This document shows, piece after piece, positions 16,333-48,850 of a stretch of DNA of 64,000 bases. The notes below the pieces were generated by a model, which saw only the letters and a program-made list of their open reading frames with translations, was not told the DNA's origin and ran no database searches. A program made the position numbers and the translations under genes. Source of the stretch: an uncultured Candidatus Saccharibacteria bacterium (lineage in GTDB: Bacteria; Patescibacteriota; Minisyncoccia; Portnoybacterales; UBA2143); assembly GCA_964596615.1 (NCBI GenBank), contig CAZQUN010000004.1:432-64431 (forward strand), read 5' to 3'. How positions within the stretch are numbered: position 1 is the first letter of the stretch; each line of letters opens with the position of its first letter.

Positions 16333-17400
16333 TTGCTTTTTTCCTTTTTCTGTGCTAAATTGGTTTTCATGGAATACTTGGTTATTCTACTTTTGTTTGT
16401 TGTTGTTATCAGTTCTTCCCTGATTATTTTTTTACTATTAAGAAGAAGGCCGGAAAAACAAGATAGCCAATCACTTTTAATGCTTCAGGAACAGATTGGC
16501 CAGTTAAACCAGGCAGTTGATAGTAAATTATCCGAATCAGCCAGGGCAATGCAGACCCAATTTGGTCAAAGCGCTAAAATTGTCCGGGACGTAACCGAGA
16601 GATTAACTAAATTAGATGATACTAATAAACGGGTGGTTGATTTTGCCAAGCAGATGCAGTCCTTGGAGAATATTCTGACCAATCCAAAACAAAGAGGTGT
16701 CTTAGGAGAATATTTCCTGGAAACAGTTTTAAAGAATGTTTTGCCTCCGGATTCCTACAAAGTCCAATATTCTTTTAAAGACGGAACCATAGTTGACGCA
16801 GTCGTATTTATTGATAAACAGATTATTCCGATTGATTCGAAGTTTTCCTTAGAGAATTATAATAGGATTTTGGATAGCCAGAGTTCTGAAGAGAAAAAAA
16901 GATACGAAGCTGCTTTTATTAACGACTTAAAATTCAGGATTGACGAAACTTCAAAATATGTTAAGCCAGAGGAAAGAACGATGGACTTTGCCTTTATGTA
17001 TATTCCTTCAGAAGCAGTTTATTACGACCTCTTGATTAATAAGGTTGGGGCAGTTAGAGGTGATACTAATAATCTGGTTTCTTACGCCGGGAGAAAGAAA
17101 GTCATAATAGTTTCTCCAACTTCTTTTCTTGCCTATTTACAAACTGTTTTACAAGGATTAAGAAGGCAAAAGATTTCTGAACAGGCCATGGGGATAGTAA
17201 AGGAAGTTGAAAGGCTTGGAAAACACCTGGGGGCATACAATCAACACATGCAGAAATTAGGAAATCACTTGACAACAACCGTTGGAAGTTATAATAGGGC
17301 TAATAAAGAACTTAAAAAAGTTGATAAAGATGTGGTTAAAATTACCGATGGAAAACCACAAATAGAGGCAGAAGAAATAGAAAAACCATTATTAGAATAA
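16333..17400 (+). CDS. rmuC: DNA recombination protein RmuC
   Basis: N-terminal TM and coiled coil, then the RmuC signature TNPKQRGVLGEYFLETVL. The true start may be the internal Met MEYLV at 16372. Confidence 0.6.
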   Translation: MLFSFFCAKLVFMEYLVILLLFVVVISSSLIIFLLLRRRPEKQDSQSLLMLQEQIGQLNQAVDSKLSESARAMQTQFGQSAKIVRDVTERLTKLDDTNKRVVDFAKQMQSLENILTNPKQRGVLGEYFLETVLKNVLPPDSYKVQYSFKDGTIVDAVVFIDKQIIPIDSKFSLENYNRILDSQSSEEKKRYEAAFINDLKFRIDETSKYVKPEERTMDFAFMYIPSEAVYYDLLINKVGAVRGDTNNLVSYAGRKKVIIVSPTSFLAYLQTVLQGLRRQKISEQAMGIVKEVERLGKHLGAYNQHMQKLGNHLTTTVGSYNRANKELKKVDKDVVKITDGKPQIEAEEIEKPLLE

Positions 17401-18642: not shown

Positions 18643-20013
18643 TTATTCCTCCAATCTTTTCTCCAGATTCCTGAAACTAACCTGGCTTTCATTGAAATAT
18701 AATTCAGCTCGGCCAGTTGGACCATTACGATGCTTGGCGATAATAATATCAGCAATATTTTTCCGGTCGGTATTAGGCCTTTCCTTATCCTCCCGATAGA
18801 TGAAAATCACCACATCAGCGTCCTGTTCTAAACTTCCACTTTCTCTTAAATCAGAAAGTTTGGGAATAGCCGGGGAGCGGGATTCAACAGAACGGTTGAG
18901 TTGGGAAATGGCTAAAACGGGAACTTCAAGTTCTCTGGCCAAAGATTTCAAACTTCGGGATATTTCTGTCATTTGCTGAACGGGCGAATCAAAATTATTC
19001 CTCGGCTGAATCATTTGGATGTAATCGATAATAATTAAACCAAGATTGTTTTGAGCCTGAAGTCGGCGAGCCATGGTTCTCATCTGTAAAATAGTCGGAG
19101 AAGGAGTATCATCAATATAGATTGAAGCATCCGATAATTCATCCAGCGCTCTCTGGATTTTTTCAAAATCATTATCCGGTCCTTCGCCGGATAAACGACC
19201 GGTCCGTATTCTCCAGGAATCAACTTCTGCCTGAGAACTAATTAACCGGTCAACTAATTGTTCCTTGGACATTTCAATACTAAAAACGGCAACTGGTGTT
19301 TTTTCCTTAATCGAAGTATGTCGAGCAATATTAAGAGCAAGCGAGGTTTTTCCAAGAGAAGGGCGGGCGCCTAAAATAATTAAATCGGATTTCTGAAAAC
19401 CAGAAAGATAGTTGTCAATATCAGCAAATCCGGTCGGGATACCTCTTGTGGCTTCTTCGCCCCGGTGCAACTTATCAATTCTTTCAAAAGCGCTTTCTAA
19501 AGCATCTTTAACCGGCATGAATTTCTGACTGACTGATCTTTGAGAAACACTAAATATCTTCTGTTCAGATTCATCGATCAGGGTTTCAACATCATCTGGT
19601 TCCTGATAACTTAATTGACTAATTTCATTAGAAGCTCCGATTAAATCACGAAGGGCTTTTTTGTTTTTAACAATTTTGGCGTAGTGGGTAATATGGGCGG
19701 CAGTTGGAACGGAATTAACCAGGTCAGTCAAATAGGTTGCTCCGCCAATTTCTTTTAATTTCTTTTTCTCTTCTAATCGGTTGGTTAAACTTAATAAATC
19801 AATTGGTTCATTTTTTTCATAAAGATCAACCATGGCTTGATAAATGCTGGTATGGATCCCTCGGTAGAAATCATCAGCAACAAGAATATCAGCTATTTTA
19901 ATAATAGCGTCTTTGTCCAACATCAAGGCTCCCAGAACAGATTGTTCGGCTTCAATATTCTGAGGCGGTAGTTTGCCTTCTATTTTAACTGATGGTTGTG
20001 TTTTTTCTGCCAT
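18643..20013 (-). CDS. dnaB: Replicative DNA helicase DnaB (canonical copy)
   Basis: 456 aa with Walker A GARPSLGKTS, and the conserved motifs SIEMS, IIDYIQMI, ISQLNR, LRESGSLEQDADVV and AKHRNGPTG. Confidence 0.9.
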   Translation of the reverse strand: MAEKTQPSVKIEGKLPPQNIEAEQSVLGALMLDKDAIIKIADILVADDFYRGIHTSIYQAMVDLYEKNEPIDLLSLTNRLEEKKKLKEIGGATYLTDLVNSVPTAAHITHYAKIVKNKKALRDLIGASNEISQLSYQEPDDVETLIDESEQKIFSVSQRSVSQKFMPVKDALESAFERIDKLHRGEEATRGIPTGFADIDNYLSGFQKSDLIILGARPSLGKTSLALNIARHTSIKEKTPVAVFSIEMSKEQLVDRLISSQAEVDSWRIRTGRLSGEGPDNDFEKIQRALDELSDASIYIDDTPSPTILQMRTMARRLQAQNNLGLIIIDYIQMIQPRNNFDSPVQQMTEISRSLKSLARELEVPVLAISQLNRSVESRSPAIPKLSDLRESGSLEQDADVVIFIYREDKERPNTDRKNIADIIIAKHRNGPTGRAELYFNESQVSFRNLEKRLEE

Positions 20014-24469: not shown

Positions 24470-26314
24470 ATGAGTAAAGTAATTGGTATTGATTTAGGAA
24501 CCTCTAATTCTGCAGCCGCAGTTGTTGAGGCCGGAAAACCAACCATAATTCCTTCAGCCGAAGGAACAGTTATTGGCGGAGGCAAGGCCTTTCCATCCTA
24601 TGTTGCCCTTGATAAGAATGGCGGTCTTTTAGTTGGCGAGCCAGCCAGAAGACAGGCAGTCAGTAATCCGGAAAACACGGTTTCTGCTTTCAAGCGGAAA
24701 ATGGGGACAAAGGAAAAATATAGTTTGAATGGCAAGGAGTATACGCCGGAACAACTTTCTGCTTTTGTCCTGCAGAAAATTAAAAAAGATGCCGAGGCCT
24801 TTTTAGGCGAACCAATCCAGAAAGCAGTCATTACTGTCCCGGCCTATTTCAATGATTCTCAAAGACAAGCAACCAAAGACGCCGGCTCAATCGCCGGATT
24901 AGAAGTTGTCCGAATTATCAACGAGCCAACAGCGGCTTCTCTTTCTTATGGAATTGACAAGGCCGGTCAGGAAGAAAAGATTCTTGTTTTTGACTTTGGC
25001 GGCGGAACTCTTGATGTCACAATTATGGATTTTGGCGAAGGTGTTTTCGAAGTTAAATCAACCTCAGGCGATACTCAATTGGGCGGAACCGATATGGATG
25101 AAATTCTAGTTGAATATATTCTTGAAGAATTTAAAAAAGAAAACAATATTGATTTAAAAGAAGATCGGACAGCCTTGGAAAGAGTTAAAGATGCGGCTGA
25201 AAAAGCTAAAATTGAACTATCAAGCGTTTTAGAAACAGACATTATCATTCCTTTTATCAGTCAATCCAAGGAATTGAATATGAAAATTACCCGGGCGAAA
25301 TTGGAAGAATTAGTTAAGCCCATTGTTGAAAAATGCCGCGGTCCATTGGAGCAGGCTTTAAATGATTCTAAACTAACTCCTAATGATATTACTAAAATAA
25401 TCCTGGTTGGCGGACCGACCCGAATGCCGATTGTTCAAAGTTTTGTTGAGGACTATGCCGGCAAAAAGATTGAAAGGGGAGTTGACCCAATGGAATGTGT
25501 TGCTCTTGGAGCGGCAATTCAGGGTGGAATTCTGACCGGAGAAACAAAAGATGTTCTTTTGCTTGATGTTACTCCGCTGACTTTAGGGATTGAAACTCTT
25601 GGTCAGGTCATGACTCCTTTAATTGAAAGAAATACAACCATTCCAACTTCTAAATCACAGGTTTTTTCAACAGCAGCTGATAATCAGCCGGCAGTTGATG
25701 TTCATGTTCTTCAGGGAGAAAGGCCAATAGCGACTGATAACCGAACCCTGGGCCGATTTATTCTTGATGGCATTCCGCCTGCTCCAAGGGGCGTTCCTCA
25801 GATTGAAGTTAGTTTTGACATTGATGCCAACGGAATTTTAAATGTCAAAGCTAAGGACAAAGCAACCAACAAGGAACAGAAAATTACTATTACCGACTCT
25901 TCATCCCTTTCCAAAGAAGACATTGAAAAAATGAAAAAGGAAGCTGAAGCTCATTCAGCTGAAGACAGAAAGAAAAAAGAATTAATTGAAACCAGAAATC
26001 AGGCTGATACTTTAATCTTTTCAACCGAGAAAGCCATAAAGGAAGCTGGTGATAAAGTTAAACCAGAAGACAAAAAAGAAGTTGAAGAAAAATTAGAATC
26101 TCTCAAAAAACTTAAAGATTCTAATGAAGTTGATTCTCTTAAAAAAGCAATTGATGAATTATCCCAGGTTATCCAGAAAATCGGCGCTCAATTGTATCAG
26201 AAAGTTGAGGAGGAAAAGAAAGAACAGAGTGAGCCGGAAATTAAAGGAGACAAAAAGACAGTTAAAGGAGAATACGAAGAAATTAAAAAGGAGGGGAATA
26301 ATGCGAATAAATAA
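24470..26314 (+). CDS. dnaK: Chaperone DnaK (Hsp70)
   Basis: 614 aa with the signature motifs [29 protein letters not shown] and [15 protein letters not shown]. Confidence 0.95.
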
Positions 26315-27077
26315 AAATCAAATAACTAACTCAGTCATTGTCGGTCTGGCAACTCTGGTTGCTGCAATTACCTGGGCCGGACTGAAAGGAGTATTGTTTA
26401 ACGATGGTTCTTGGATTTGGCCGAGCATTGGCCTTTTAATTTTATCAGTTTTCCTGAGTTTGAACTGGCTTTTAACCAAGTCAAGGACAATCCTTTTAAC
26501 AACCCTTGTCTTTATTCTGATTACTTTTTTACTCACTTTTGGTTTTGAAATTGAATTCTTGGCTGTTCTTGTTTTATCCTTGTTTTTCTTTGTTTTTGGT
26601 TCTTTCCGGGCAATTTCTGAAAAAGAGGACAGAATTAAAATTAACTCAATTAAAATCGTTAAAAGGGGCCTGCCATATATTATGACCGGCCTTGCTCTTG
26701 TTATTGCCTCGGCCTACTATTTTTCTCCTTTATCCACACTCGGCCAGGAAAGAATTGAAATTCCTCGTCCTTTCTTTGATAATATTATCGGTCCGGCAAG
26801 TGAGGTTTTTGAAGGGCAAACTGGTTTTGACTTGGGAGAAACACAGGAAACCCTTTATCAAACAATTAACGGAGAGATTAATAAGCGGAGCGAACCTTAC
26901 AAAGGATTTATTCCAATTAGTTTATCTATCGGTGTCTTTTTCGCCCTTAAAGTTATTAGCATCCCTTTTATCTGGCTAACAATTCTCTTGGCTTCTCTCA
27001 TTTTCAAAATCCTGATTTGGACAAAGGCAATCCATATCCATGAGAAGTCTGTTCTGAAGGAGGTAATCGAAATTTAA
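26301..27077 (+). CDS. Hypothetical polytopic membrane protein inserted between dnaK and dnaJ
   Basis: The start is trimmed to the ATG at 26301, which has a GGAGG RBS and lies inside the dnaK 3' end. It is in frame with the longer six-frame ORF and has about 6 TM helices. Confidence 0.45.
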
Positions 27078-28166: not shown

Positions 28167-28715
28167 ATGGAAATCCGTTCATTTCTGGCAAATCTCCATG
28201 TTGGCGCTGCTTCGGGCTGGGATTTATTCATCGCCCTGGTTTTTTTAATTGCCGTTCTAATTTATGGATTTTTCCTCGGGCGCAACCGAATGATAATTCT
28301 TTTAATCAGCAGCTATTTTTCCTTTTTAATTGTTAAATCTCTGCCCTGGCAGAAACTATCATCTTTGGGTTGGTTGGGTATTAACCAGGATCCATCTTCT
28401 TCTTCCAGAATTCTGATTTTTATCGCAATTATTCTTTTGCTCTATTTCCTAATCCCTCGTAGTGTTTTAAGCTCGCCTCTGCGAATTAAAAAAAGAGGAA
28501 ACGCTTCCTGGATTCAACTATTCATTCTTAGTGTTGTCCAGGTTGGATTACTGGCTATGGTTATTCTTTCGTTTCTTCCTCCTGAAGTCATTTCAAACCT
28601 TGGTTCGGTTATTAAAAAGATATTCGTTGGGCCGGAAGCTGAATTTGTCTGGGTAACTATTCCAATACTAGCCGTTGTCCTAATGCGGAGAAAAAAGGAA
28701 ATCGGGAAGAAATAG
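28167..28715 (+). CDS. Hypothetical membrane protein
   Basis: 182 aa with multiple TM helices. Confidence 0.35.
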   Translation: MEIRSFLANLHVGAASGWDLFIALVFLIAVLIYGFFLGRNRMIILLISSYFSFLIVKSLPWQKLSSLGWLGINQDPSSSSRILIFIAIILLLYFLIPRSVLSSPLRIKKRGNASWIQLFILSVVQVGLLAMVILSFLPPEVISNLGSVIKKIFVGPEAEFVWVTIPILAVVLMRRKKEIGKK

Positions 28716-28786: not shown

Positions 28787-28860
28787 GGGGGTATAGCTCA
28801 GTGGTAGAGCAGAGGCCTTTTAAGCCTTTGATGGGGGTTCGATTCCCTCTACCCCTACCA
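28787..28860 (+). tRNA. tRNA-Lys (anticodon UUU), CCA encoded
   Basis: Acceptor GGGGGTA/TACCCCT, D-arm GCTC-AGTGGTA-GAGC, anticodon stem GAGGC/GCCTT with loop CTTTTAA, T-arm GGGGG-TTCGATT-CCCTC, then ACCA. A -10-like TATTAT lies immediately upstream. Confidence 0.85.
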
Positions 28861-28924: not shown

Positions 28925-30289
28925 CTATTCAGTTTCTCCCTCCTCCCAAGAGAGATATTCCCCCCAGAAAGTAAGGGGTATATTGCCAGGCGTCCCTCCT
29001 TTGCCGACAATAATCTCGGCATCTCTTTCGGGTTTACCTTCTTCTTCAATCTTTTTTGGTTCGTAAGCATTTGGTCGGTAGAGCAAGAGGATTTTATTGC
29101 TTAACTCTTCGGCTGCTTTACTGAATAAATCAGAAGTTTTGGGGCGCTTATCTTCTCTGTCTTCTAGTTTTCGATTGAGCTGGCTTGAAATAATGACCGG
29201 TATTTTTATCTGATAGCAGAAGGGCTTGATTTTTTCAATGATGAAATCAGCTTGTTCTAGGGGGTGCTTAAATTCTTTGCCAGGCCAAAAAAGTTCTTGT
29301 AAATTTTCAATAATCAGCAATCCAGGGCCCTGATTAAGTTTGTCTATTTTTTCTAGGGCATTTATTATCTCTATCTGGAGGGCCGGCACAGCAATCCTTT
29401 GTTTAATTACAATGCTGTGAATTGGCGCGTCATTGATCTGTTGATGGCATCGATCCATCATTTCCAATTCATCTTTTTCTGTTATTCTGCCTCCCCCTAT
29501 CTTATTAAGGGGGATTTTACATCTTTGGGCATCCAGACGACGGTAGATTATCGGCATTACCATCTGTGCCCCGCAATAAACAACCGGACTACCTTCATCA
29601 ATAGCCGTATGAGACAGAAACTCAAGGACTAGGGCTGTTTTTCCCATTCCTGTTCTGCCGCCGACAATTGTTAGCTCATAAGGCATAAATCCCCCAATTG
29701 CGCGATTAAGCGATTCAAAAGGCGTCTCTTTGCTAAAAGAAAAGTAGTCAAAAAGTTCTTCAGTAGAGAGCTCCAGCTTGTTGGCGCCACTTCCTTTTGC
29801 CGCTTTTTTCATTATTTCCGAGGGCATCTCAATGACTTTGGCAACCAGTTCATCTACCCTGACACCAGGGGTAAAGGCAGTTCTAGCTAATTCATTGGTT
29901 TTCTCTAAGACCACTCTCTTTACCGCGTCTCCTTTGATAATCTTGGCGTGATGAGCGACATTTTCCGTTGCCGGCGTTCCGTCGTGGAGTATGACAAGAT
30001 AACTGGCTCCACCAACACTTTCGAGTTCGCCTTTCTTTTTGAGTTGATTGGTCAGAGTAAGAAGGTCAATCGGCGTTTCCTCGTTAGTCAGATCAATCAT
30101 GGCAGCAAAAATTTTTTGATGGGCGGGCTTGTAGAAATCTTCGGCCTCTAGGATTTGCCAGGCCGTAAGAAATTTTTTGTTCTCCTGTAAGATTCTCCCA
30201 ATGACTGATCCTTCAGCTTCAGGACTTTGGGGTGGCAGAGAGAACTGGGGAAAATCTTTGGCTGTCTTATCTTTCGCTTTTTCTCTCAT
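28925..30289 (-). CDS. Divergent DnaB-family replicative helicase paralog, translationally coupled to the upstream reverse transcriptase
   Basis: 454 aa with a DnaB N-terminal domain (EAEGSVIGRIL ... IDLLTLTNQL), Walker A GGRTGMGKTA, Walker B-like LLIIENLQ, ISSQLNR and a KGGTPG loop. The start overlaps the RT stop by 23 nt, and a GGAGG RBS lies inside the RT 3' end. Confidence 0.75.
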   Translation of the reverse strand: MREKAKDKTAKDFPQFSLPPQSPEAEGSVIGRILQENKKFLTAWQILEAEDFYKPAHQKIFAAMIDLTNEETPIDLLTLTNQLKKKGELESVGGASYLVILHDGTPATENVAHHAKIIKGDAVKRVVLEKTNELARTAFTPGVRVDELVAKVIEMPSEIMKKAAKGSGANKLELSTEELFDYFSFSKETPFESLNRAIGGFMPYELTIVGGRTGMGKTALVLEFLSHTAIDEGSPVVYCGAQMVMPIIYRRLDAQRCKIPLNKIGGGRITEKDELEMMDRCHQQINDAPIHSIVIKQRIAVPALQIEIINALEKIDKLNQGPGLLIIENLQELFWPGKEFKHPLEQADFIIEKIKPFCYQIKIPVIISSQLNRKLEDREDKRPKTSDLFSKAAEELSNKILLLYRPNAYEPKKIEEEGKPERDAEIIVGKGGTPGNIPLTFWGEYLSWEEGETE

Positions 30290-31334
30290 TTTCTGCCTCC
30301 TTTATCTTTTCTCGGTATAAAATCCAGTACTCTCTTACCCAGCCGGGCCAGTGTTGTTCTTGGCCATAGATTTGCCGAATGTACATAGCAATGCCGATAA
30401 CATATTTTTTGGGATAGGCGTCGTCATATTTCCAAGCCATAAAGAAAATTCGGCGATAGGCATTCTTTTTCCGATGGTTGATATGAATTTTCTGATGTTT
30501 CTTACCAACAATCGTCAGCCCGAGCATATGAGGGGTGGTTTTCCCCAGATTATCTTTTGTTTTCTCTGGCTTAACGGAAAAGCCAGATTTGGTCGGGATT
30601 GCCAGTAATTCTTCTTTGATTTCAGGTGAAATTATTTCCTTTGAGGCGAAGTTGAAATCGTCGGCGTAGACAAACCATTTTATATTGTGTGTTTGGCAAA
30701 TCCGGTCCATCTCACAACACATGGGCTCGTAAACAAGATTTAGCAAAGCCGGGCTGCACGACGCTCCTTGAGGCAGGCGACGCTGTTCATTATAATGATA
30801 GGTTACCAACCAGGATAAAGGATCAATTAGGGCCTTATTAATCCCTAATTTTTCAAGGGATTGTTTTACCATTTCCTTTGTAATACTGGGAAAAGCATCG
30901 GCTATATCAAAGCTGAAATAATGAACGTTTCCCAAAAGTGTCTGTGTTGCTTTAAGAGTATTTCTTTTTTTAACAAACCCATATGCATTTTGATGGGCGG
31001 GCCTAAGTTCAACCAATGTTTTTCCGATTGCTCTGAGCGCTTTTTGGACTATCGGATGCGGAGCAAGGATTTTTCTTGGCTTTTTTCCTTTCCGCAAAGT
31101 AAATCCTCTGAAGCCATGAGAAAATGTTTCTTGGACTGATTTGCCTTTAACCATAATTTCGTCCTCGAATTCTACTCTGCCTATTATCTTCCATGCCTTT
31201 CTCAAGACCTTTTTCGTAGTTTTTAGTTTCTCTGCTAGTGCTTTCAGTGCCCAGGAAAACTGGACATCAAGAGAAACATCTTCCATTGACCGAAACTCAT
31301 ATTTTTCCAGCGTTTCTGGTTTTTCTGAATACAT
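30267..31334 (-). CDS. Reverse transcriptase (RT motifs 1, 2, 4 and 5 present; 355 aa, no maturase/endonuclease domain)
   Basis: Motif 1 RKILAPHP, motif 2 FDIADAFPSI, motif 4 LPQGASCSPALLNL (QGxxxSP type) and motif 5 FVYADDF are present. Motifs 6/7 read KPEKTK ... MLGLTIVG. A GGAGG RBS lies 7 nt upstream of the ATG. Confidence 0.8.
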   Translation of the reverse strand: MYSEKPETLEKYEFRSMEDVSLDVQFSWALKALAEKLKTTKKVLRKAWKIIGRVEFEDEIMVKGKSVQETFSHGFRGFTLRKGKKPRKILAPHPIVQKALRAIGKTLVELRPAHQNAYGFVKKRNTLKATQTLLGNVHYFSFDIADAFPSITKEMVKQSLEKLGINKALIDPLSWLVTYHYNEQRRLPQGASCSPALLNLVYEPMCCEMDRICQTHNIKWFVYADDFNFASKEIISPEIKEELLAIPTKSGFSVKPEKTKDNLGKTTPHMLGLTIVGKKHQKIHINHRKKNAYRRIFFMAWKYDDAYPKKYVIGIAMYIRQIYGQEQHWPGWVREYWILYREKIKEAENERKSER

Positions 31335-31382
31335 TTTAGCCTCCTATGTTATCCTTAAGGGTTATAAGTTTTTAAAGAATTT

Positions 31383-31707
31383 GCCCCGCGCCAGGTTTGT
31401 CTTCACTAGCGCGAGGACTTTCAGGCAGTTGGGTGATATCAGGACGGCTTTTCCCTTCGCTTTATCAACCTCAAGCCGGGCAGGAAAGGTCGAGGAGCGA
31501 GGGGTGCCGAGGAGAGGAGAGGATTCGTCCGGGTTCCGGCGGAATAAAGTATCTATCAAACCGGAGGGGTCCGGGGTGTCCCCGGGCTCTCCTTGCTCTC
31601 ATGTTCTCCGCTGCCTGAGCTCAGAAAGCGGTTTAAGACCTATTTCGAAACATAAGATATTTCCGAAACGAACCTTGTGAGAGCCCAAGATTCTTCGGTC
31701 TTGTTTT
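31383..31707. ncRNA. GC-rich structured element (candidate RT-associated ncRNA or independent structured RNA), strand unresolved
   Basis: About 320 nt is far more GC-rich than its surroundings. It contains a 13-bp imperfect hairpin (31563-31592), a purine tract GAGGAGAGGAGAGGA complementary to a downstream CTCTCCTT/CTCTC tract, a 10-bp palindrome CTGAGCTCAG, and a plus-strand hairpin plus T4 at its 3' edge. No credible long ORF overlaps it. Confidence 0.5.
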
Positions 31708-31815
31708 ATCCCATTCGCCTGTTTGATTATTTCTAACACAAAAGAGATTTTTTCGCAAGAAAGTCAATTAATAGTGTTTATCCACCTTATTTATGCTAGA
31801 ATATTGGATAGGAAA

Positions 31816-32262
31816 ATGTATCATATAGCGATAATGAGGAAATCCTGGGGTCTCTTGCCCAAGATTTTAACCAAAGAAAAGACAATTGAATCACGCTGGT
31901 ATATGAATAAATATTCTCCTTGGGACAGGATTAAAAAAGGGGATATTGTTTATTTTGAGAATTCTGGTGAACCGGTTAGTATTAAAACAGAAGTTTCAAA
32001 GATTATTCAGTATTCGGATTTAACGCCAGTCAAAGCAAAACAAATTCTTCAAAAATATGGCGCTAAAGATGGCCTGGGTATTAATGAAATTGACAAATAT
32101 TATCAGATGTTTAAAGGTAAAAAATATTGCTTGTTAATTTTTCTTAAAAACCCGCAGGGAACTAAATCTTTTGATATTGATAAGACCGGATTTGGAGCGA
32201 TGGCGGCCTGGATAGTAGTTGATAATATAAAAAGAGTTAAGAGAAATCTTTTTACAGTTTAA
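31816..32262 (+). CDS. ASCH (PUA-like) domain protein
   Basis: Carries the ASCH signature ILTKEKTIESRW (GxKxxExR-like). The start is trimmed to MYHIAIMRK at 31816. Confidence 0.5.
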   Translation: MYHIAIMRKSWGLLPKILTKEKTIESRWYMNKYSPWDRIKKGDIVYFENSGEPVSIKTEVSKIIQYSDLTPVKAKQILQKYGAKDGLGINEIDKYYQMFKGKKYCLLIFLKNPQGTKSFDIDKTGFGAMAAWIVVDNIKRVKRNLFTV

Positions 32263-32308: not shown

Positions 32309-33982
32309 ATGGATCCGCAAACACACATCGACCCGGGACAACAAATAAATAACTTCCAACCAGAACAAAATCCTAAAAGATTAAATTTTCCTTTCTGGGT
32401 TTGGGTTGTAGTAGTAACCGCTATTTTAGGCCTAGGCGGTTATTTTATTTATCAACATTTCTTTTCTGAAACGATAACAGTCCTTGATTCGACAGACCAA
32501 TGGCAAACTTACCACAATGAAGAATTAGGGTTTAGCTTTAAATATCCAAGGGATTATGGAGAAATGGTGTTTTCAATAAACTCCGGGGAAACAGGAGAAA
32601 TGTTTTATGGGAATTTCTCTAAAAATCCTGATATCCAATTTGGAGGAATAACATACGATTATACTGCTGGTATGGGAGGACAATTCATAGGTACACAAGG
32701 ATATACACAAGATAATGATAAATATTATTTTAACTTTGTTGCTGATGAAAAAATAGAAGTAACTCCGTCGAGATTTATTCAAATAAATGAAGGGGCAGAT
32801 GAAGCCCTAGTCATCGAAGATCAAGATATGGGTTTGCTAATTAATCCTAGCGGGAAGGGAGCTTTAATTAACCTGAAAGATGATAGATTTTCTGGAATTG
32901 GCTTTATTTATTACAATATTCCTCAGGATGAAACCTATCTTTTTGATGACATCATTTCTAGCTTTAAGTTTATTGAGCCCACCGATACATCTAATTGGCA
33001 AACATATCGTAACGAGGAATATCGATTTGAGGTTTTAATGCCTGGGGGTTGGTATACCAGCGAAGAATATTATCAAAATATTGACCAGCAAATGATTAGG
33101 TTTTCGAATTATCCGTGGGGGTCATTTGAAAAATCGGAAACCCCGGAGGATTTTCTTGCTTTCTTCATTTCAACTTATCCAAAATACAAAGAAGATGACT
33201 ACGAAAAAATTAAAGAAATAGAAGAAGAAATGAAAGAGTTTTCAAACGAAAAATTTGAATACAGCATTGAAAATAAATGGCTGATAAATCTTTATGTTAT
33301 TTCTGAAAGAACTTCTCAAAAAGATAATATTACCTGGGATGTTATCTTGCCTTACGCCAAAGCGTTTTTAACGGGCGAAAATTATAAATATTATTTCTAT
33401 CCTTCTTCGCCGGTTCCAACACTAGACAAAGGACAAGAAAAGGAATTAGATATTTTAAGAGGGATGTTAAAGTCATTTAAATTTATTAAACTAAGCAATC
33501 TGTCTGATGAAGAAATATATCAGAATAATGAATATAAAATTAGATTTGAAAAACCGTTTCTTTTTGGCAGACAGGGCGATGTCAGAGAAAAGGAGAATAA
33601 AATATTTGTTTGCCTGGACCCTTCAACAGAAGATACTTCTTCCTGTCAGTATGTAGAAATTTTTGAAAAGAGCCCGGGACAGACTTTGAAAGAAGCCATA
33701 GAAGAACAGTTTCTTAAAAGTTATCCTTCTGATAAGTGCTGGTTTGAAGAAATAAGAAGGGAGAATAATCCAAAAGGATATCAATACGCGACTATAAGTT
33801 ATCCTACCCCTTGGTATGATAATCGACAGTATTGTCCCTCTTATAGCGCGGCAAATGGTGTGAGTTATTTTATGATGGACCCACGCTATCCCGACCGTTT
33901 TGTTTACTTTAGCATCGGACAGTACTATATTGGGACTAGGAACAGAGAATCCTGGCAGGATACATTTGAATTTATTGATTAA
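32309..33982 (+). CDS. Hypothetical membrane-anchored extracellular protein with internal WQTYxNEE repeats
   Basis: 557 aa with an N-terminal TM helix and repeated W-Q-T-Y-x-N-E-E-x-x-F motifs. Rich in Tyr/Asn. Confidence 0.4.
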   Translation: MDPQTHIDPGQQINNFQPEQNPKRLNFPFWVWVVVVTAILGLGGYFIYQHFFSETITVLDSTDQWQTYHNEELGFSFKYPRDYGEMVFSINSGETGEMFYGNFSKNPDIQFGGITYDYTAGMGGQFIGTQGYTQDNDKYYFNFVADEKIEVTPSRFIQINEGADEALVIEDQDMGLLINPSGKGALINLKDDRFSGIGFIYYNIPQDETYLFDDIISSFKFIEPTDTSNWQTYRNEEYRFEVLMPGGWYTSEEYYQNIDQQMIRFSNYPWGSFEKSETPEDFLAFFISTYPKYKEDDYEKIKEIEEEMKEFSNEKFEYSIENKWLINLYVISERTSQKDNITWDVILPYAKAFLTGENYKYYFYPSSPVPTLDKGQEKELDILRGMLKSFKFIKLSNLSDEEIYQNNEYKIRFEKPFLFGRQGDVREKENKIFVCLDPSTEDTSSCQYVEIFEKSPGQTLKEAIEEQFLKSYPSDKCWFEEIRRENNPKGYQYATISYPTPWYDNRQYCPSYSAANGVSYFMMDPRYPDRFVYFSIGQYYIGTRNRESWQDTFEFID

Positions 33983-43437: not shown

Positions 43438-44745
43438 ATGAATAGTAGATTGAGTCAATTTAGTTGGCAGTTTTGGGTTTTGTCTTTAACCCTCCTTTTA
43501 ATATTTCCCATTTTCACCCAGGCAGATTTAATTGACGAGATTAATCAACAAATTAAAGAACGGGAAGGTAAAAGAACGGAACTAGAAAGACAAGCCCAAG
43601 AATACCAGGCAGTTATTAACCAAAAGAGGGGAGAGATTAATACTTTTAGCAATCAGATTGCCATTTTCAATGCTCAGATAAACAAATTGCAGGTGGAAAT
43701 AAATATTACTGAGGATGATGTTTCTCAGACCAAAATAGAGATTATTCAATTAGAATACGGCATTGAGGAAACCGAGGAGGATATAGTTTACCAAAAGGAC
43801 AATCTGGCTGTAATTATTCAGTCAATTGCCGAATATGACCAAACTTCGCAATTGGAAATGATGCTTCAAAGTGATGATTTTTCTGACTTTTTCAGCCAAA
43901 TGACATATTTAGATAATCTTCAAAGCGGTGTCCGGGAAAAAGTTAATAAACTTAAAACCCTGAAAGTAAAATTAGGGCAGGATAAAGAAACAAAAGAAGA
44001 TAAAAAAACCAATTTAGAAAATCTTAAAAGCCAGTTAGATAATCAGAAATGGTCTCTGGCCAGCCAGAGAAATTCCAAAGAAGCTCTTTTAAAATATACC
44101 CAGGGAGAAGAAAAGAAATATCAACAAATGCTGGCTAATATTGAAGCCCAGAAAAAGTCCCTATTAGGCGATTTAAGCAAATTACGCCAGCAAAAAGCAG
44201 AAGAATTAGCCCGATTAAAAGAATTACAGGAAAAACCGCCATCTCAGTATTGGGCTTCAACTAACTGGTATTACCAACAAGATGATCCGACCTGGGCTGA
44301 GACAACCATTGGCTTCAGCCGTTCTGAAATGGGGGACTACGGCTGCGCCGTTAGTAGTGTTGCTATGGTAGCAAGTTATCATGGTAGTTGGATTACACCG
44401 GGACAAATGGCTAAACAACCAATTTTCTATTATGACCTAATTGTCTGGCCAAGGAGCTGGGGGAATATTAGCTGCACTAACTGTCCGCCGCCCCATGTTT
44501 CAACATTTGACTGGTTCCGTTTAGACAGGGAATTAGGAGCCGGCCATCCGGTTATTGTCTTTGTCCGGGCTAATGGCCGGGGAGCCGGACATTATGTTGT
44601 TGTCCATCACAAGACCGATGATGGCAGGTATGTTGTTCATGATCCGCTCTTTGGAGAAAACATCTACTTAGATTCAACCCGAGTCTATATTTCCAATCTT
44701 TACGAAACTAATACATCAATAGACCAAATGGTCATTTATCATTAA
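43438..44745 (+). CDS. Secreted coiled-coil protein with a C-terminal papain-like (C39/CHAP-like) cysteine peptidase domain
   Basis: Has a signal peptide, about 250 aa of coiled coil, then GDYGCAVSSVAMVASYHG ... GHYVVVHHKTDDGRYVVHDP (a Cys ... His dyad). Confidence 0.45.
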   Translation: MNSRLSQFSWQFWVLSLTLLLIFPIFTQADLIDEINQQIKEREGKRTELERQAQEYQAVINQKRGEINTFSNQIAIFNAQINKLQVEINITEDDVSQTKIEIIQLEYGIEETEEDIVYQKDNLAVIIQSIAEYDQTSQLEMMLQSDDFSDFFSQMTYLDNLQSGVREKVNKLKTLKVKLGQDKETKEDKKTNLENLKSQLDNQKWSLASQRNSKEALLKYTQGEEKKYQQMLANIEAQKKSLLGDLSKLRQQKAEELARLKELQEKPPSQYWASTNWYYQQDDPTWAETTIGFSRSEMGDYGCAVSSVAMVASYHGSWITPGQMAKQPIFYYDLIVWPRSWGNISCTNCPPPHVSTFDWFRLDRELGAGHPVIVFVRANGRGAGHYVVVHHKTDDGRYVVHDPLFGENIYLDSTRVYISNLYETNTSIDQMVIYH

Positions 44746-44756
44746 ATATTAAAAAT

Positions 44757-45176
44757 ATGCGATACATCATTTTTTCAATAATATTTTTCCTTCTTTCTTT
44801 TAATTTTGTTTTAGCAGAAGGAATAACACTCCCGAAACAATCAGAAGGTCTTGATAGTTTTTATCAGCAGATCAACAACAAGATTATCTCTCCGGTGAAA
44901 CAAATCTTTGAAGTAATTCCTCAGAGGGCCAAAGAAAGCGCTGATAAAATTATGGAAAGGTTCCAGGATAAAGCAGAACAGAAAAAAGAAGAAATAAAAG
45001 AGGAAATTAAGGAAGAAATCAAACAAGAAAGCAAGGAACAAATCCAGAAAAAGTCAAAATGGGCAGAGGAGACAATTAGAAAATGGCTCTCTCCTCTAAA
45101 AATTAAAATTGAGCAGGGGAGTCAGGTCCTGAGAGGATGGATAGGAAAAGGGATAGATTGGATTAAAAGTTTTTAA
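44757..45176 (+). CDS. Hypothetical secreted protein
   Basis: 139 aa with a signal peptide and KEEIKEEIK repeats. Confidence 0.35.
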   Translation: MRYIIFSIIFFLLSFNFVLAEGITLPKQSEGLDSFYQQINNKIISPVKQIFEVIPQRAKESADKIMERFQDKAEQKKEEIKEEIKEEIKQESKEQIQKKSKWAEETIRKWLSPLKIKIEQGSQVLRGWIGKGIDWIKSF

Positions 45177-45232
45177 TAAAAAAACCGACAGCCAGAGTTA
45201 GGGAATGGGGGAGAGGTTGTCCACAGAAAAAT

Positions 45233-45261
45233 TTGACGGCTATTTAGCCGTGTAATAAAAT
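45233..45261 (+). promoter_or_regulatory. Sigma-70-like promoter upstream of xerC (TTGACG-N17-TAAAAT)
   Basis: The hexamers and their spacing are as stated. Confidence 0.35.
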
Positions 45262-45303
45262 TGTAATATAGTCGGATAATATACCTTAATACACATTAAA
45301 TAT

Positions 45304-46245
45304 ATGGAGAAAAGCAAAAAGCCACTAACTCAACATTTAACTGATTTTTTGGATTGGCTTGATATTGAAAAAGGTTTATCAAATAAATCCCAGGAAAACT
45401 ATTCCCGCTTCCTCAAAAAGTTTGTTGGTTGGTTAGAAGAAAATAACCTAAAGGATTTAAAACCCCATGACCTCTCCCCCGGCCATATTTGGGAATATCG
45501 GGTCTACCTTTCCAGGCATTCAAAAAAACCATTAAAAAAATCTACCCAAAACTATTACTTAATCGCTTTGAGGTCGTTTTTAAACTACTTTGCCGACCGG
45601 GATATCATTTCCCTTCCGGCAGAAAAAATTAAATTATCTAAAGACAAGGGCGAAAAGAAAATTCATTTTTTAACCATAGAACAGGTTGAAAAATTACTCT
45701 CTACTCCTGATACTAATAAAAAGAACGGTCTTCGTGACCGGGCTATCCTGGAAAGCTTGTTTTCAACCGGTTTAAGAATCGCTGAATTAGTTTCTCTGAA
45801 TAGGGATCAGATTCGTATCATTCCCCTAGCCAAAGATTTAGAAATTGGCATTGTTGGCAAAGGAAATCGTCCCAGAACCGTCTATTTCTCCGAGAGAGCC
45901 ATATACTGGCTTGATAAGTATCTTAAAACAAGAAAAGACAATGATAAGGCTCTTTTTGTTAACTATCAAGGTAGAAAAGATGCCCCGAAACGGTTAACAG
46001 ACCGGTCCATTGAAAGAGGTCTTAAAAGATACGCTCTTTTAGCTGGATTGCCTGGAAATACGACTCCCCATACTATTCGTCATTCATTTGCGACTGATCT
46101 TCTTTCCCAGGGCGTTGATTTAAGATTAATCCAGGAATTTTTAGGACACAGCAATATTGCTACGACCCAGATATATGCTCATGTAACAAGTAAAAAACTT
46201 AGAGATGTCCATCGTAAATTTCACGGCGGAAAGGATTTAAAATGA
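45304..46245 (+). CDS. xerC: Tyrosine recombinase XerC/XerD family
   Basis: Has the catalytic region HTIRHSFATDLL ... LGHSNIATTQIYAHV (R-H-R-Y). Confidence 0.85.
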   Translation: MEKSKKPLTQHLTDFLDWLDIEKGLSNKSQENYSRFLKKFVGWLEENNLKDLKPHDLSPGHIWEYRVYLSRHSKKPLKKSTQNYYLIALRSFLNYFADRDIISLPAEKIKLSKDKGEKKIHFLTIEQVEKLLSTPDTNKKNGLRDRAILESLFSTGLRIAELVSLNRDQIRIIPLAKDLEIGIVGKGNRPRTVYFSERAIYWLDKYLKTRKDNDKALFVNYQGRKDAPKRLTDRSIERGLKRYALLAGLPGNTTPHTIRHSFATDLLSQGVDLRLIQEFLGHSNIATTQIYAHVTSKKLRDVHRKFHGGKDLK

Positions 46246-47378
46246 GAATCTCCTATTCCGGGCTGGATACCTTTTCTACCTGTCCGGCAAAATATAAGTT
46301 TCAATATGTTGAACGAATTAAATTTCCTAAGATAAAGGAAGCGGTTTTTGGAACCTTGATTCACGATTGTTTAAAGATGTTCCACGAGCCCGGTCGGCTC
46401 GCTCCCCCAACCGAAGACGAACTTTTACAATACTTTACTAACAAATGGAATCCGGACATCTATTCCGACCAACAGGAGGAAGCTTTTGCTTTTCATCAGG
46501 GAATAGATATTCTTAAAAAATATTTTCTTCAAAACCAAGGACTTGAATTTAATATTATAAACCTGGAAGCGCCTTTTGGAGCGCTCATTTCAGACGGGAA
46601 AGAAATTAATCAAATCACCGGTCGGATTGACCGGATTGATAAACTTCCGGATGGAAGCTTTGAGGTTATTGATTACAAGACAAGCAAAAAAATGCCTGCT
46701 CAGGAGACAGTTGATAAAAACTTCCAACTTTCCGTCTATTATCTCGGTTTAACCAATCGCTGGCCCTCAATTCAGGAACAAAACCGACCAGTTAAATTAT
46801 CCCTCTATTTTTTAAGACATGGCGAGAAACTTTCTGCGACAAGAAACAGCAGTCAAATTAAAGAAACCCAGGAAAGAATCCTGGATTTAATCAGTCAAAT
46901 AAAGATTAGTAATTTTGAACCAAAAGCCAACCCATTATGCAATTGGTGCCAGTATCAGCCCCATTGCCCCTTATACAAACATAAATTTATTACTCCTGAC
47001 TCCCCTGCTCCAGGTGAAAAGAAAATTAAAAAAGTTATCAAAGAATTTTTTGAAATAAAAGAAAAACAAAACCAGGATACAAAAAGAATCGGAGAACTAA
47101 AGGAATTAATTAACCAATACTGTGATGAAAATGATTTAGAACGGGTCTTTGCTGATGAAGGTCATATCACTCGCCTGTCCCAGCAGAGGTTTAGTTATAA
47201 TTTTAATCAGGTTAAAAAGGTTTTAGAGCCAATTGGCAAATGGAATCAGATTTTAACCATAGATACAGCTAAATTCAAAAAAGTGATTGATTCTCTTCCT
47301 TATCAAGAAAAGAAGGAAATAGAAAAGACAAAAACTCTCCAAAGAGAGTTTAAAGTTATTTCCGGGAAGAAACATTAA
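46242..47378 (+). CDS. PD-(D/E)XK nuclease with a C-terminal Cys cluster (Cas4/RecB-nuclease-domain-like)
   Basis: Has the motif EVIDYKTSK and the cysteines CNWCQYQPHCP, plus an N-terminal CP. Overlaps xerC by 4 nt. Confidence 0.5.
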   Translation: MRISYSGLDTFSTCPAKYKFQYVERIKFPKIKEAVFGTLIHDCLKMFHEPGRLAPPTEDELLQYFTNKWNPDIYSDQQEEAFAFHQGIDILKKYFLQNQGLEFNIINLEAPFGALISDGKEINQITGRIDRIDKLPDGSFEVIDYKTSKKMPAQETVDKNFQLSVYYLGLTNRWPSIQEQNRPVKLSLYFLRHGEKLSATRNSSQIKETQERILDLISQIKISNFEPKANPLCNWCQYQPHCPLYKHKFITPDSPAPGEKKIKKVIKEFFEIKEKQNQDTKRIGELKELINQYCDENDLERVFADEGHITRLSQQRFSYNFNQVKKVLEPIGKWNQILTIDTAKFKKVIDSLPYQEKKEIEKTKTLQREFKVISGKKH

Positions 47379-47761
47379 TAGTTTACCGGCCTATGTTTCT
47401 CAAATCCATTACAAGGAATATATCCTGAGTTTCTGGCTTCTTCTTCGGAATTAAACCAGATCTGATTCTCCCCTGCTATTTTCTTAGCCCAGGGGCAATC
47501 CGGCCAATGATATTTATTACTATTAGCACTTCCAATGAATCTCCCTTGCTCTGTTTCTTTTTCTTTTTTTTCTGTTGATAGGGATTGTTCAATAGAGGCA
47601 GAATAATTAGAAGGATTCTGGATAATAATCGGTTCCGGAGCGCCCTGAAGAGAAACCAAAAGACCAGCTCCGAAACTAATTAAAGCAATTAAAACAATTC
47701 CCAAGGTTAAAGTGATGTCGTTTTGATGATTCTTGACGAAATTTTTAAAATAGGATAACAT
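47375..47761 (-). CDS. Membrane-anchored protein with an Ada-like metal-binding motif
   Basis: A TM helix followed by a C-terminal YHWPDCPWAKKI ... FNSEEEARNSGYIPC, which resembles the Ada N-terminal Zn-binding fold. Confidence 0.35.
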   Translation of the reverse strand: MLSYFKNFVKNHQNDITLTLGIVLIALISFGAGLLVSLQGAPEPIIIQNPSNYSASIEQSLSTEKKEKETEQGRFIGSANSNKYHWPDCPWAKKIAGENQIWFNSEEEARNSGYIPCNGFEKHRPVNY

Positions 47762-47769
47762 AAATTATT

Positions 47770-48042
47770 ATGTCAAAGACAAAATCAGCCGGCTCTACTA
47801 GATTAGGCCGCGATTCTCAACCAAAATATTTAGGAATTAAATTATCTGGCGGACAAAAAGCCAAGCCGGGCAGTATTATTCTTCGTCAAAGAGGAAGTAA
47901 ATTTTTACCCGGTAGGAATGTCAGAAAAGGAAATGACGATACCCTTTATGCCATGGCCAAAGGAGTGGTTGAGTTTGTCAGTAAAAGAATTAAAAAGTTT
48001 GACGGCTCTCGCCGAATTGCCAAGATTGTTAACGTAAGATAA
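47770..48042 (+). CDS. rpmA: 50S ribosomal protein L27
   Basis: Starts SKTKSAGSTRLGRDSQPKYLGIK and has no N-terminal propeptide. Confidence 0.9.
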   Translation: MSKTKSAGSTRLGRDSQPKYLGIKLSGGQKAKPGSIILRQRGSKFLPGRNVRKGNDDTLYAMAKGVVEFVSKRIKKFDGSRRIAKIVNVR

Positions 48043-48103
48043 TTATACCTGGAATTGAATTAAAAATCACCCTGAGGGGTGTTTTTTGGTTTGATATTAA
48101 ATT

Positions 48104-48565
48104 CTATTCTTTTTCTTTCTTTTTCTCTTCAGAGGTAATAACTTTGATGCCAACTTCTAGGTTATGAGGAAGTTCAATCATGACTTCCCTCTCCCCTAAC
48201 TCTTTAATCGGCTCTTCTAATTTAATCTGATTTTTGTCAATTTCAAATCCCCTTTCTTTTAGTTTTTCAGCAATCAAAACAGGAGTGATTGCTCCAAATA
48301 ATTTATTATCCTCACTGATTTTTACCGATATCTCTAGTTCTAATCCATCCATTTGTTCGGCAATTCCTTGATAACGAATTAATTCTTCTTCAGCTTCCTG
48401 GGCTTCTAATTCTTTCTGTTCTTCAAGTTTCTCTATTTCTGATTCTGTCGCCAAAACAGCAAGATTCTTGGGAATTAAAAAGTTTCGGGCATAGCCTCTA
48501 TTTGCGTCTTTAAGGTCACCCTTTTTACCCAGTTTCTCTATATCCCGTAGTAATATTACTTTCAT
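48104..48565 (-). CDS. rplI: 50S ribosomal protein L9
   Basis: Starts MKVILLRDIEKLGKKGDLKDANRGYARNFLIPK. Confidence 0.85.
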   Translation of the reverse strand: MKVILLRDIEKLGKKGDLKDANRGYARNFLIPKNLAVLATESEIEKLEEQKELEAQEAEEELIRYQGIAEQMDGLELEISVKISEDNKLFGAITPVLIAEKLKERGFEIDKNQIKLEEPIKELGEREVMIELPHNLEVGIKVITSEEKKKEKE

Positions 48566-48574
48566 ATCTCTATT

Positions 48575-48850
48575 CTAATACTTTATTTCAAATTTATCAA
48601 ATTGACTGGTTGCTTCCTGCCAGTCAATATCTATTTTATCAACCCTGGCCAGCATTGGTCCATTCTTAGACCAATCAATTAATTCCTTTAATTTCTCCTC
48701 TTCTCCTTGAGCGAGAATCATAACAGTTCCGTCTTTTTCGTTTTTAACCCAACCAACCAGTCCCAGTTTAACAGCTTTTCGTCTGGTAGAATCCCGGTAC
48801 AAAACCATCTGAACCCGGCCATGAATTTTTAGAATAACCTGTTTTTTCAT
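48575..48850 (-). CDS. acyP: Acylphosphatase
   Basis: Carries the motifs IHGRVQMVLYR and GWVKNEKDGTV. Confidence 0.75.
   Translation of the reverse strand: MKKQVILKIHGRVQMVLYRDSTRRKAVKLGLVGWVKNEKDGTVMILAQGEEEKLKELIDWSKNGPMLARVDKIDIDWQEATSQFDKFEIKY

Follow-up and report, generated by a model that had tools for sequence, protein, structure and literature searches.

Retrons (types I-XIII; Mestre et al. 2020, PMC7736814) bring together an RNA gene, a reverse transcriptase (RT) gene and an accessory gene in an operon-like unit; the ends of the RNA pair in a terminal helix around 5' hairpins and a variable stem-loop region, which is the architecture described for msr-msd RNAs, and the accessory protein is a repurposed enzyme fold. 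We describe here a module of similar build in a 64,000-nucleotide (nt) stretch of DNA from a Candidatus Saccharibacteria contig (CAZQUN010000004.1 of assembly GCA_964596615.1, positions 432 to 64,431; hereafter, the window). Its parts are all encoded on the minus strand: namely, a conserved structured non-coding RNA (ncRNA) that is a candidate msr/msd-like element (31384..31722), a retron-type RT of 355 amino acids (aa) with an intact YADD motif (30267..31334), and a DnaB-derived accessory protein of 454 aa (28925..30289) with the DnaB N-terminal domain, a linker and a RecA-like C-terminal domain. It is very probable that these parts constitute a three-part retron-like module, which is found mainly in Patescibacteria and in which the DnaB-derived protein is translationally coupled to the RT. 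The best reading of this compact module (~3.3 kb, with an RNA, an RT and one protein), as we infer it, is a retron-like defence system whose accessory protein is an ATP-binding but hydrolysis-dead mimic of DnaB. For the whole statement, i.e., the identity of the module together with a working model in which this mimic interferes with replication, we would give a probability of roughly 0.4.

The likeness to retrons is not limited to the layout. The best profile matches of the RT are retron RTs, and the accessory gene is conserved, with a DnaB-like gene following the RT at every evaluable locus. In the 2020 classification (PMC7736814), however, neither DnaB nor any other helicase appears among the accessory genes, and the later RT surveys that we checked for DnaB or helicase accessory genes made no mention of them. 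Also, the RT family of the window is isolated, its RNA is long (280-412 nt) with an extra hairpin before the RT gene in most loci, and the multicopy single-stranded DNA of retrons, made from a branching G with a 2'-5' link, would be a prediction for this system.

A pairing of an RT with a DnaB_C-domain protein has already been reported in other phyla. TXI_noncan_h is a lineage of type XI-like retron RTs with 29 loci in Bacillota and Bacteroidota, in which DnaB_C-domain proteins are mostly found at the +1 position and a compact double stem-loop ncRNA lies 22-104 bp upstream of the RT (bioRxiv 10.64898/2026.05.14.725207, May 2026). The system in the window shares with this lineage a retron-like RT without a protease, a DnaB_C protein mostly at +1 and a candidate upstream ncRNA. 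It differs in its hosts, which are of the Patescibacteria type, whereas no Patescibacteria entry appears in those tables of the preprint that were available; in its RNA, which is not compact and has its core ~130-330 nt upstream of the RT; and in its RT, which scores the III-A, IX and II-A models above XI. We set the two apart by such description (hosts, RT model scores and RNA). The preprint does not discuss a loss of catalytic residues. One origin of the pairing and convergent recruitment are both possible.

Linkage of the reverse transcriptase with a divergent DnaB

The RT of the window matched Pfam RVT_1, and all 25 PADLOC matches listed (of 48) were retron RT models (III-A, 122 bits; IX, 113; II-A, 112; XI, 83), while the NCBIfam model of group II intron RTs scored 47 bits. 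YADD is invariant in the RT family, and the H and G residues, which are reported to be the most conserved in retron RTs (PMC7736814), are retained. The family is a discrete one: ~70 clusters have scores of 222 bits or more, after which the next relative drops to 67 bits.

The gene downstream of the RT had been described, in a preliminary description of this DNA, as a second DnaB-family gene, and its 454-aa product indeed has a full-length DnaB fold. Pfam detected the DnaB N-terminal domain (PF00772, 107 bits) and DnaB_C (PF03796, 127 bits), and the best sequence matches in the PDB were DnaB helicases (E = 1e-49). A monomer model produced by AlphaFold from 15 family sequences had a mean predicted local distance difference test score of 84.6, and a Foldseek search with this model returned DnaB structures only, with a template modelling (TM) score of 0.80 to V. 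cholerae DnaB. The two-domain fold, Walker A, the conserved Gln and a well-conserved N-terminal domain are thus shared with replicative DnaB, including phage P1 Ban and the copies on islands and plasmids. The window also encodes, outside the module, its native replicative DnaB (18643..20013, minus strand), in which the catalytic motifs are all intact. The far divergence between the two copies, which had been noticed in the preliminary description, was borne out by an identity of 29% and by the TIGR00665 equivalog model (cutoff, 385.25 bits), in which the DnaB-like protein falls below the cutoff (213.5 bits) and the native copy lies above it (555.9 bits). The native copy has thousands of relatives at 67-96% identity, and the named ones are replicative DNA helicases of Patescibacteria, Parcubacteria or Portnoybacteria.

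In the tree obtained from 64 DnaBs by neighbour joining (200 bootstraps), the native copy clusters with the chromosomal DnaBs of Parcubacteria and Portnoybacteria in 200/200 bootstraps, and the 35 RT-linked DnaBs, without exception, form one separate bipartition, again in 200/200; phage P1 Ban sits on the canonical side. With both copies in one tree, therefore, it is the RT-proximal copy that stands away from the chromosomal DnaBs and is the divergent, non-housekeeping one, as had been supposed. A phage or plasmid origin of this copy was considered and rejected; the nearest phage and plasmid DnaBs are ~30% identical to it, and cellular DnaBs are no more distant. A search with the DnaB-like protein retrieved a tight family at 38-55% identity, followed by a drop to ordinary DnaBs at ~33%. 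The divergence is unevenly distributed over the protein: in the N-terminal domain, the identity of the family to canonical DnaBs (38%) equals that among the family members (also 38%), whereas the C-terminal motor domain is the fast-evolving part, with 28% identity to canonical DnaBs, which among themselves are 64% identical in this domain.

The linkage of the two genes was found from either side. All six family members looked up by their DnaB had the RT immediately upstream on the same strand, and the flanking housekeeping genes differ across those six loci (TyrRS, MurD, AlaRS, RlmN, FtsH and others). When the RT was taken as the starting point, a DnaB-like gene was directly downstream in 9/9 family loci of GTDB genomes and in 22/22 metagenome loci with enough downstream sequence, some of which duplicate earlier loci; no locus of the RT family without a DnaB-like partner was found among the evaluable ones. 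The two genes overlap or abut at all loci, and in the window the overlap is 23 nt and covers the start codon of the DnaB-like gene. Furthermore, pairwise identities of the RTs and of the DnaB-like proteins are correlated across 15 loci (Mantel r = 0.85), which was matched by 0/5000 permutations. The link to the RT is not a local chance, and the two genes are an obligate pair in Patescibacteria. The recruitment of a DnaB-type protein into an RT-based system, as proposed in the preliminary description, agrees well with this obligate linkage and the discrete clade, and relatives carrying the helicase without any RT, which would have spoken for another history, were not encountered at the evaluable loci.

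Nine family matches were found in a pattern-limited scan of 185,579 species genomes; because loci were retrieved by exact peptide patterns, such counts are lower bounds. The hosts are labelled Patescibacteria, Parcubacteria, Saccharibacteria and Moraniibacteriota, together with a few odd labels of metagenome-assembled genomes. The latter concern three loci (L014, L016 and L017) in assemblies labelled Aminicenantes and Bdellovibrionales, all the other hosts being Patescibacteria-type, and may reflect mis-binning or horizontal transfer. Some distant copies of the module share their surroundings: L011 and L012/L013, with ~40% identity between their DnaB-like proteins, have the same context upstream of tRNA-Val, tRNA-Ile and FtsH, and the copies in L007 and L009 both adjoin RlmN. 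These shared contexts suggest long vertical residence at some sites. In two further loci, the module is incomplete. The RT match of L022 (5001-6006) is split over two frames, suggesting a frameshift or an assembly error, and only the C-terminal domain of the DnaB-like gene was detected in L037 (1158-1714), after a gap of ~550 nt; both of these copies may be in decay.

Replicons are the usual carriers of accessory DnaB copies, as the preliminary description had pointed out, and the module might serve the replication of a mobile or selfish element, or else be a domesticated housekeeping replication function, with no part in immunity. Its chromosomal position does differ between genomes, and it adjoins tRNA genes in three contexts. 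Nonetheless, we found no integrase, relaxase, capsid, Rep or other mobile-element gene near the module in the window, where the flanks are housekeeping genes and where the preliminary description, too, had noted no phage genes, nor any flanking direct repeats or duplicated tRNA fragment that would be the scar of an integration. No relative of the RT was found in 2.9 million viral contigs, the ~30% identity to phage and plasmid DnaBs is low, and a helicase without an arginine finger (see below) would be a poor replicative engine. As to the housekeeping version, the rarity of the module (nine matches among the species genomes scanned) indicates that it is not a housekeeping one. A replicative function of either kind is therefore considered very improbable.

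Active-site residues of the DnaB-like family

In DnaB, ATP hydrolysis involves a catalytic Glu, a Mg-coordinating Asp of Walker B and a pair of Arg/Lys fingers from the neighbouring subunit, and DNA is contacted by R381, E382 and G384 in the B. stearothermophilus enzyme (PMC8421360). We surveyed these positions in 24 RT-linked proteins aligned with canonical DnaBs, using the numbering of E. coli DnaB and a mapping based on the alignment. Walker A (GGRTGMGKTA) occupies residues 210-219 of the window protein; GK[TS] is present in 24/24 proteins, and K217 is kept in the window protein and invariant in the family. The Walker B Asp (E. coli D343), in contrast, is replaced with Glu in 24/24 (E328 in the window protein), giving an invariant IENLQ. 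The catalytic Glu (E. coli E262, after strand 2) is missing in 23 of the 24 proteins (Q242 in the window protein), and its position is variable, with Q in 13/24 and also M, N, H, G, S and A; such a varying identity would be expected if hydrolysis is not selected. In the pair of trans-acting fingers, K-x-R (E. coli K440/R442), the Lys is kept but the two residues following it are deleted in 24/24, by which the arginine finger R442 is removed; in the window protein, the deletion is located after K430. Finally, the Arg in contact with single-stranded DNA (ssDNA; E. coli R403) is kept in 0/24 (F389 in the window protein). The ssDNA-contact loop reads DLFSK- with a one-residue gap in the subclade of the window, where the canonical form is R/K-E/D-S-G, and some deep-branching members keep K-[ED]-[ST]-G as in the active DnaB of H. 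pylori. All the motifs quoted in the preliminary description (GGRTGMGKTA, LLIIENLQ, SQLNR and KGGTPG) are present in the protein, but two of them are altered and not retained sites: LLIIENLQ contains the Glu that has replaced the Walker B Asp, and KGGTPG marks the deletion of the arginine finger.

As far as can be read from the alignment, these changes show that the DnaB-like protein, unlike replicative DnaB, has lost the residues needed for ATP hydrolysis between subunits (the catalytic Glu, the Walker B Asp and the arginine finger) with the ATP-binding P-loop being kept, and that the subclade of the window has lost the residues predicted to grip ssDNA as well. The simplest reading would be that selection acts on nucleotide binding, the shape of DnaB and the N-terminal surface, and not on ATP hydrolysis or translocation.

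This pattern bears directly on the proposal, made in the preliminary description, of a functional hexameric helicase (5'-3') for unwinding cDNA/RNA hybrids. An active motor of this type, either a helicase or a translocase that might also displace the template, would have to rely on variant catalytic residues, with Glu at Walker B and with Lys430 serving as the finger in trans. The family does keep Lys430 invariant, along with Walker A and the conserved Gln of SQLNR, and RecA itself employs lysine fingers. The proposal is nevertheless hard to reconcile with the deletion of the arginine finger in all members, a catalytic-Glu position mostly without Glu and with no conserved identity, the Asp-to-Glu change of Walker B, the lost Arg of the ssDNA loop, which is degenerate in the subclade of the window, and the fastest evolution in the C-terminal motor domain; we thus consider an active motor to be improbable. 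The other suggestion made there, namely a sensor or effector role of the DnaB-like protein, is plausible.

The altered residues also delimit the family. With ENLQ and the absence of KxRxG as the signature, a profile search that was exhaustive over 1.84 billion representative proteins gave 19-20 signature-positive proteins in the best 150 matches, which occupied the top 18 ranks plus 2 more within the top 27; KxRxG is missing from all 19 signature-positive representatives, and at least 125 of the remaining best-150 matches have the canonical DYLQ and KxRxG. The family can hence be separated from real DnaB by a simple sequence test, namely IENLQ together with the K--GG deletion. Public pipelines currently label members of the family as "replicative DNA helicase."

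A structured RNA upstream of the reverse transcriptase

The RT had been described as the only clear partner of the DnaB-like gene. While the RT is linked to it everywhere, a conserved structured RNA upstream of the RT had been missed, and it is this RNA that makes the unit a three-part, retron-like one. In the window, the 500 nt that separate the start of the RT gene from the next gene are rich in GC, although the genome is AT-rich, and the same holds for nearly all related loci. The RNA spans from the 5' arm of a closing helix to a hairpin preceding the ribosome-binding site of the RT gene.

A conserved core is common to 16 upstream regions and lies at 31560..31637 (minus strand) in the window, where it is composed of two hairpins, H1 (31608-31631) and H2 (31571-31585), followed by an invariant ACCCC. 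In an alignment of 15 sequences, 100% of the cells in the core hairpins are paired, and 5/14 pairs have changed on both sides; the covariation score was reached by 0/500 shuffles, and all slid controls collapsed. A covariance model of the core (R1) has exactly one match per family locus, upstream of the RT and on its strand, and this rule also holds at loci unused in building the model. Its single match in the window is the core itself, and it had no match in four loci carrying only distant RTs.

The ends of the RNA are joined by a long-range closing helix. Its arms in the window are ACAGGCGAAUGGG (a1-like 5' arm, 31710..31722, minus strand) and ACCCAACUGCCUGA (a2-like 3' arm, 31421..31434, minus strand). 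When the segments were fixed by the anchors TGGGAT and CACYCA, a helix of 12-17 bp was found in 12/12 loci, with sequences differing by locus (e.g., CAGGC/GCCUG, UAGAC/GUCUA and GCGGGC/GCCCGC), and matched arms paired more stably than mismatched ones (-11.9 versus -6.2 kcal/mol on average, p = 2e-5). This anchored test replaced an earlier one with broad 120-nt windows, which was noisy (p = 0.006, with only about half of the loci in the first two ranks); RNAduplex, when run on long flanks, returned full-length duplexes that could not be interpreted. Three deeper loci (L018-L020 type) have the closing helix at a shifted 3' site with covarying sequences of their own.

The RNA enclosed by the helix is composed of the conserved 5' domain and a variable pyrimidine-rich region, the latter being the candidate template (msd-like) part. 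In the window, this region lies at 31437..31559 (minus strand; 59% C+U). It forms imperfect stem-loops, the arms of which range from 9 to 48 bp across loci (~24 bp for the longest in the window), with no common alignment. C/U-rich tracts (e.g., CCUCUCCUCUCCUC) are seen in this part at most loci; they could pair with the AGGAGG ribosome-binding site or serve as the template for a purine-rich cDNA. Between the closing helix and the ribosome-binding site of the RT gene, the window further has a GC-rich hairpin followed by AAAUUCUUUAAAAA, a weak U-tract (31384..31416, minus strand). Such an extra GC-rich hairpin, with compensatory changes, is present in most loci (L001, L004, L007, L009, L011, L014, L016 and L021), and that of the window may be an attenuator or a terminator limiting read-through into the RT gene.

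No known RNA family was detected in the upstream region by Rfam at either gathering or permissive thresholds, and a scan of the minus strand for sigma-70 promoters and terminators was uninformative. TTGCGA-17-TAGAAA, which was spotted by eye upstream of the RNA, is below the threshold of the scan, and we claim no promoter there. A DRT2-like mechanism with a rolling-circle "endless ORF" (open reading frame, ORF) was tested in 12 loci and rejected, as none of them has a stop-free frame across the RNA.

Possible function and surroundings of the module

In characterised retrons, the RT and its cDNA restrain the accessory effector until phage infection disturbs the complex. By analogy, the module probably has an anti-phage role, and the following sequence of events can be pictured. 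A part of the RNA would be reverse-transcribed by the RT, and the cDNA would stay bound to the RT and the DnaB-like protein; infection would then release or remodel this protein, and the freed helicase mimic, being ATP-bound but non-hydrolysing, would block DNA replication. This could occur either by the entry of the dead subunit into DnaB rings or by the titration of DnaB partners through the well-conserved N-terminal domain, and would lead either to abortive infection or to a direct halt of phage replication. ATPase-dead, dominant-negative alleles of E. coli dnaB bind nucleotide without hydrolysis and are reported to poison wild-type rings. Nucleotide binding without hydrolysis is also what would be predicted for the window protein; the alleles are, however, laboratory point mutants of the host gene, whereas the window protein is a naturally evolved, conserved paralog with 29% identity. 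As an account of how the effector acts, this mechanism is put forward tentatively.

There are several points that weigh against this reading. Both the defence role and replication as the target are proposed by analogy alone; the loci of the module are outside recognisable defence islands, and PADLOC models matched neither the DnaB-like protein nor the ORFs of unknown function flanking the module. Because the identity to the host DnaB is only 29%, mixed rings are not assured. Some ATPase activity might also be left, as K430 beside the deleted Arg could act as a lysine finger and the Glu at Walker B (E328) could be compensating, and DNA binding may survive in the part of the family where deep-branching members keep the K-[ED]-[ST]-G loop. 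As for the RT, its best NCBIfam match is the RT of retron St85 at 111 bits, which is below the cutoff of 235, and the hallmark motifs deviate from those of retrons: region X is G-N-x-H (N-x-H), one residue shorter than NAxxH, and region Y is [M/L]-L-G, not VTG, with the Gly being invariant (G272). Since these hallmarks are only partly kept, we prefer the term retron-like and do not treat the module as a proven retron.

The same loss of motor residues could be explained if the dead DnaB copy is not the effector but a decoy or guard: it would be a sensor that baits phage proteins hijacking or inhibiting DnaB (e.g., helicase loaders), and the binding of such a protein would switch the complex of RT and RNA to the production of a harmful or signalling cDNA. 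A mimic for binding only would conserve the DnaB fold and the N-terminal domain and lose the motor residues, as is the case here, and the retained nucleotide-binding site might provide a conformational switch. The toxicity of the RT product is, however, only postulated in this explanation, an endless ORF such as that of DRT2 is absent from the RNA, and no other effector gene is conserved in the module, given that the flanks differ at every locus. A decoy appears unlikely.

The tight coupling of the two genes can be viewed in yet another way, namely that the DnaB-like protein is a passive partner, i.e., a ring-shaped, ATP-bound cofactor (clamp, chaperone or scaffold) which the RT needs to make, hold or deliver its cDNA and which is itself non-toxic. 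The translational coupling by overlap or abutment at all loci and the tight co-evolution of the two proteins would be in line with such a cofactor, and a structural role has also been suggested in the preprint on RT plus DnaB_C (bioRxiv 10.64898/2026.05.14.725207). Against it, the degenerate ssDNA-contact loop in the subclade of the window argues against the threading of cDNA through a central channel. Characterised retron RTs, furthermore, are not known to need a DnaB-type cofactor. We regard a purely passive partner as quite unlikely.

The accessory proteins of retrons have so far been nucleases, enzymes targeting NAD or nucleosides, membrane proteins, proteases and the like, and with a degenerate replicative helicase, molecular mimicry of the replisome would join them as a new logic for an effector or sensor; the helicase would also exemplify a pseudo-enzyme derived from an essential replication protein. 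That a natural replisome mimic operates in immunity, with the RT-cDNA complex controlling a dead helicase copy which either halts replication or baits DnaB-hijacking phage proteins, is possible though less likely than not. If it is true, this principle of an effector or sensor would be one not described for any retron or other defence system, and the module would be a first defence system that is open to experiment and particular to the reduced genomes of Patescibacteria. These bacteria, with tiny genomes and few known defence systems, do maintain a lineage-specific RT system.

The module in the window is flanked on one side by GrpE, Hsp20, DnaK, DnaJ and tRNA-Lys and on the other side by two unknown ORFs and then GreA, a HIT protein and an aminoacyl-tRNA synthetase. 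Three flanking ORFs, at 32309-33982 (557 aa), ~31837-32262 (~142 aa) and 28167-28715 (182 aa), had no match in Pfam, NCBIfam or PADLOC and are not conserved beside the module at other loci. Two plus-strand ORFs were set aside: one (31141-31680) overlaps the RNA and has no family match, and the other (31723-32262) probably holds the shorter 142-aa gene and has no Pfam match.

The tRNA-Lys(UUU) gene (28787-28860) is located 65 nt past the stop codon of the DnaB-like gene and converges on it, and tRNA genes (Val and Ile) are also just downstream of the module in L011, L012 and L013. The position of tRNAs beside the module could reflect an insertion hot spot or the mere density of small genomes.

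Several minor observations were made elsewhere in the window. The cumulative GC skew reaches its peak at ~44-47 kb, the highest bin being 44001-46000, and in the 44000-49000 region long ORFs are on the plus strand up to 47378 and on the minus strand from 48847; a skew peak together with convergent ORFs at 44-49 kb is a pattern typical of a replication terminus. The ORF at 26124-27077 (317 aa), for which no family match was found, overlaps the 3' end of dnaK (24470-26314) by ~190 nt on the same strand in another frame; its start may be wrong, or the ORF may be spurious. A ribosomal protein L10 leader (2354-2462; Rfam RF00557, just above the gathering score) and an RmuC-family gene (16333-17400) are both ordinary.

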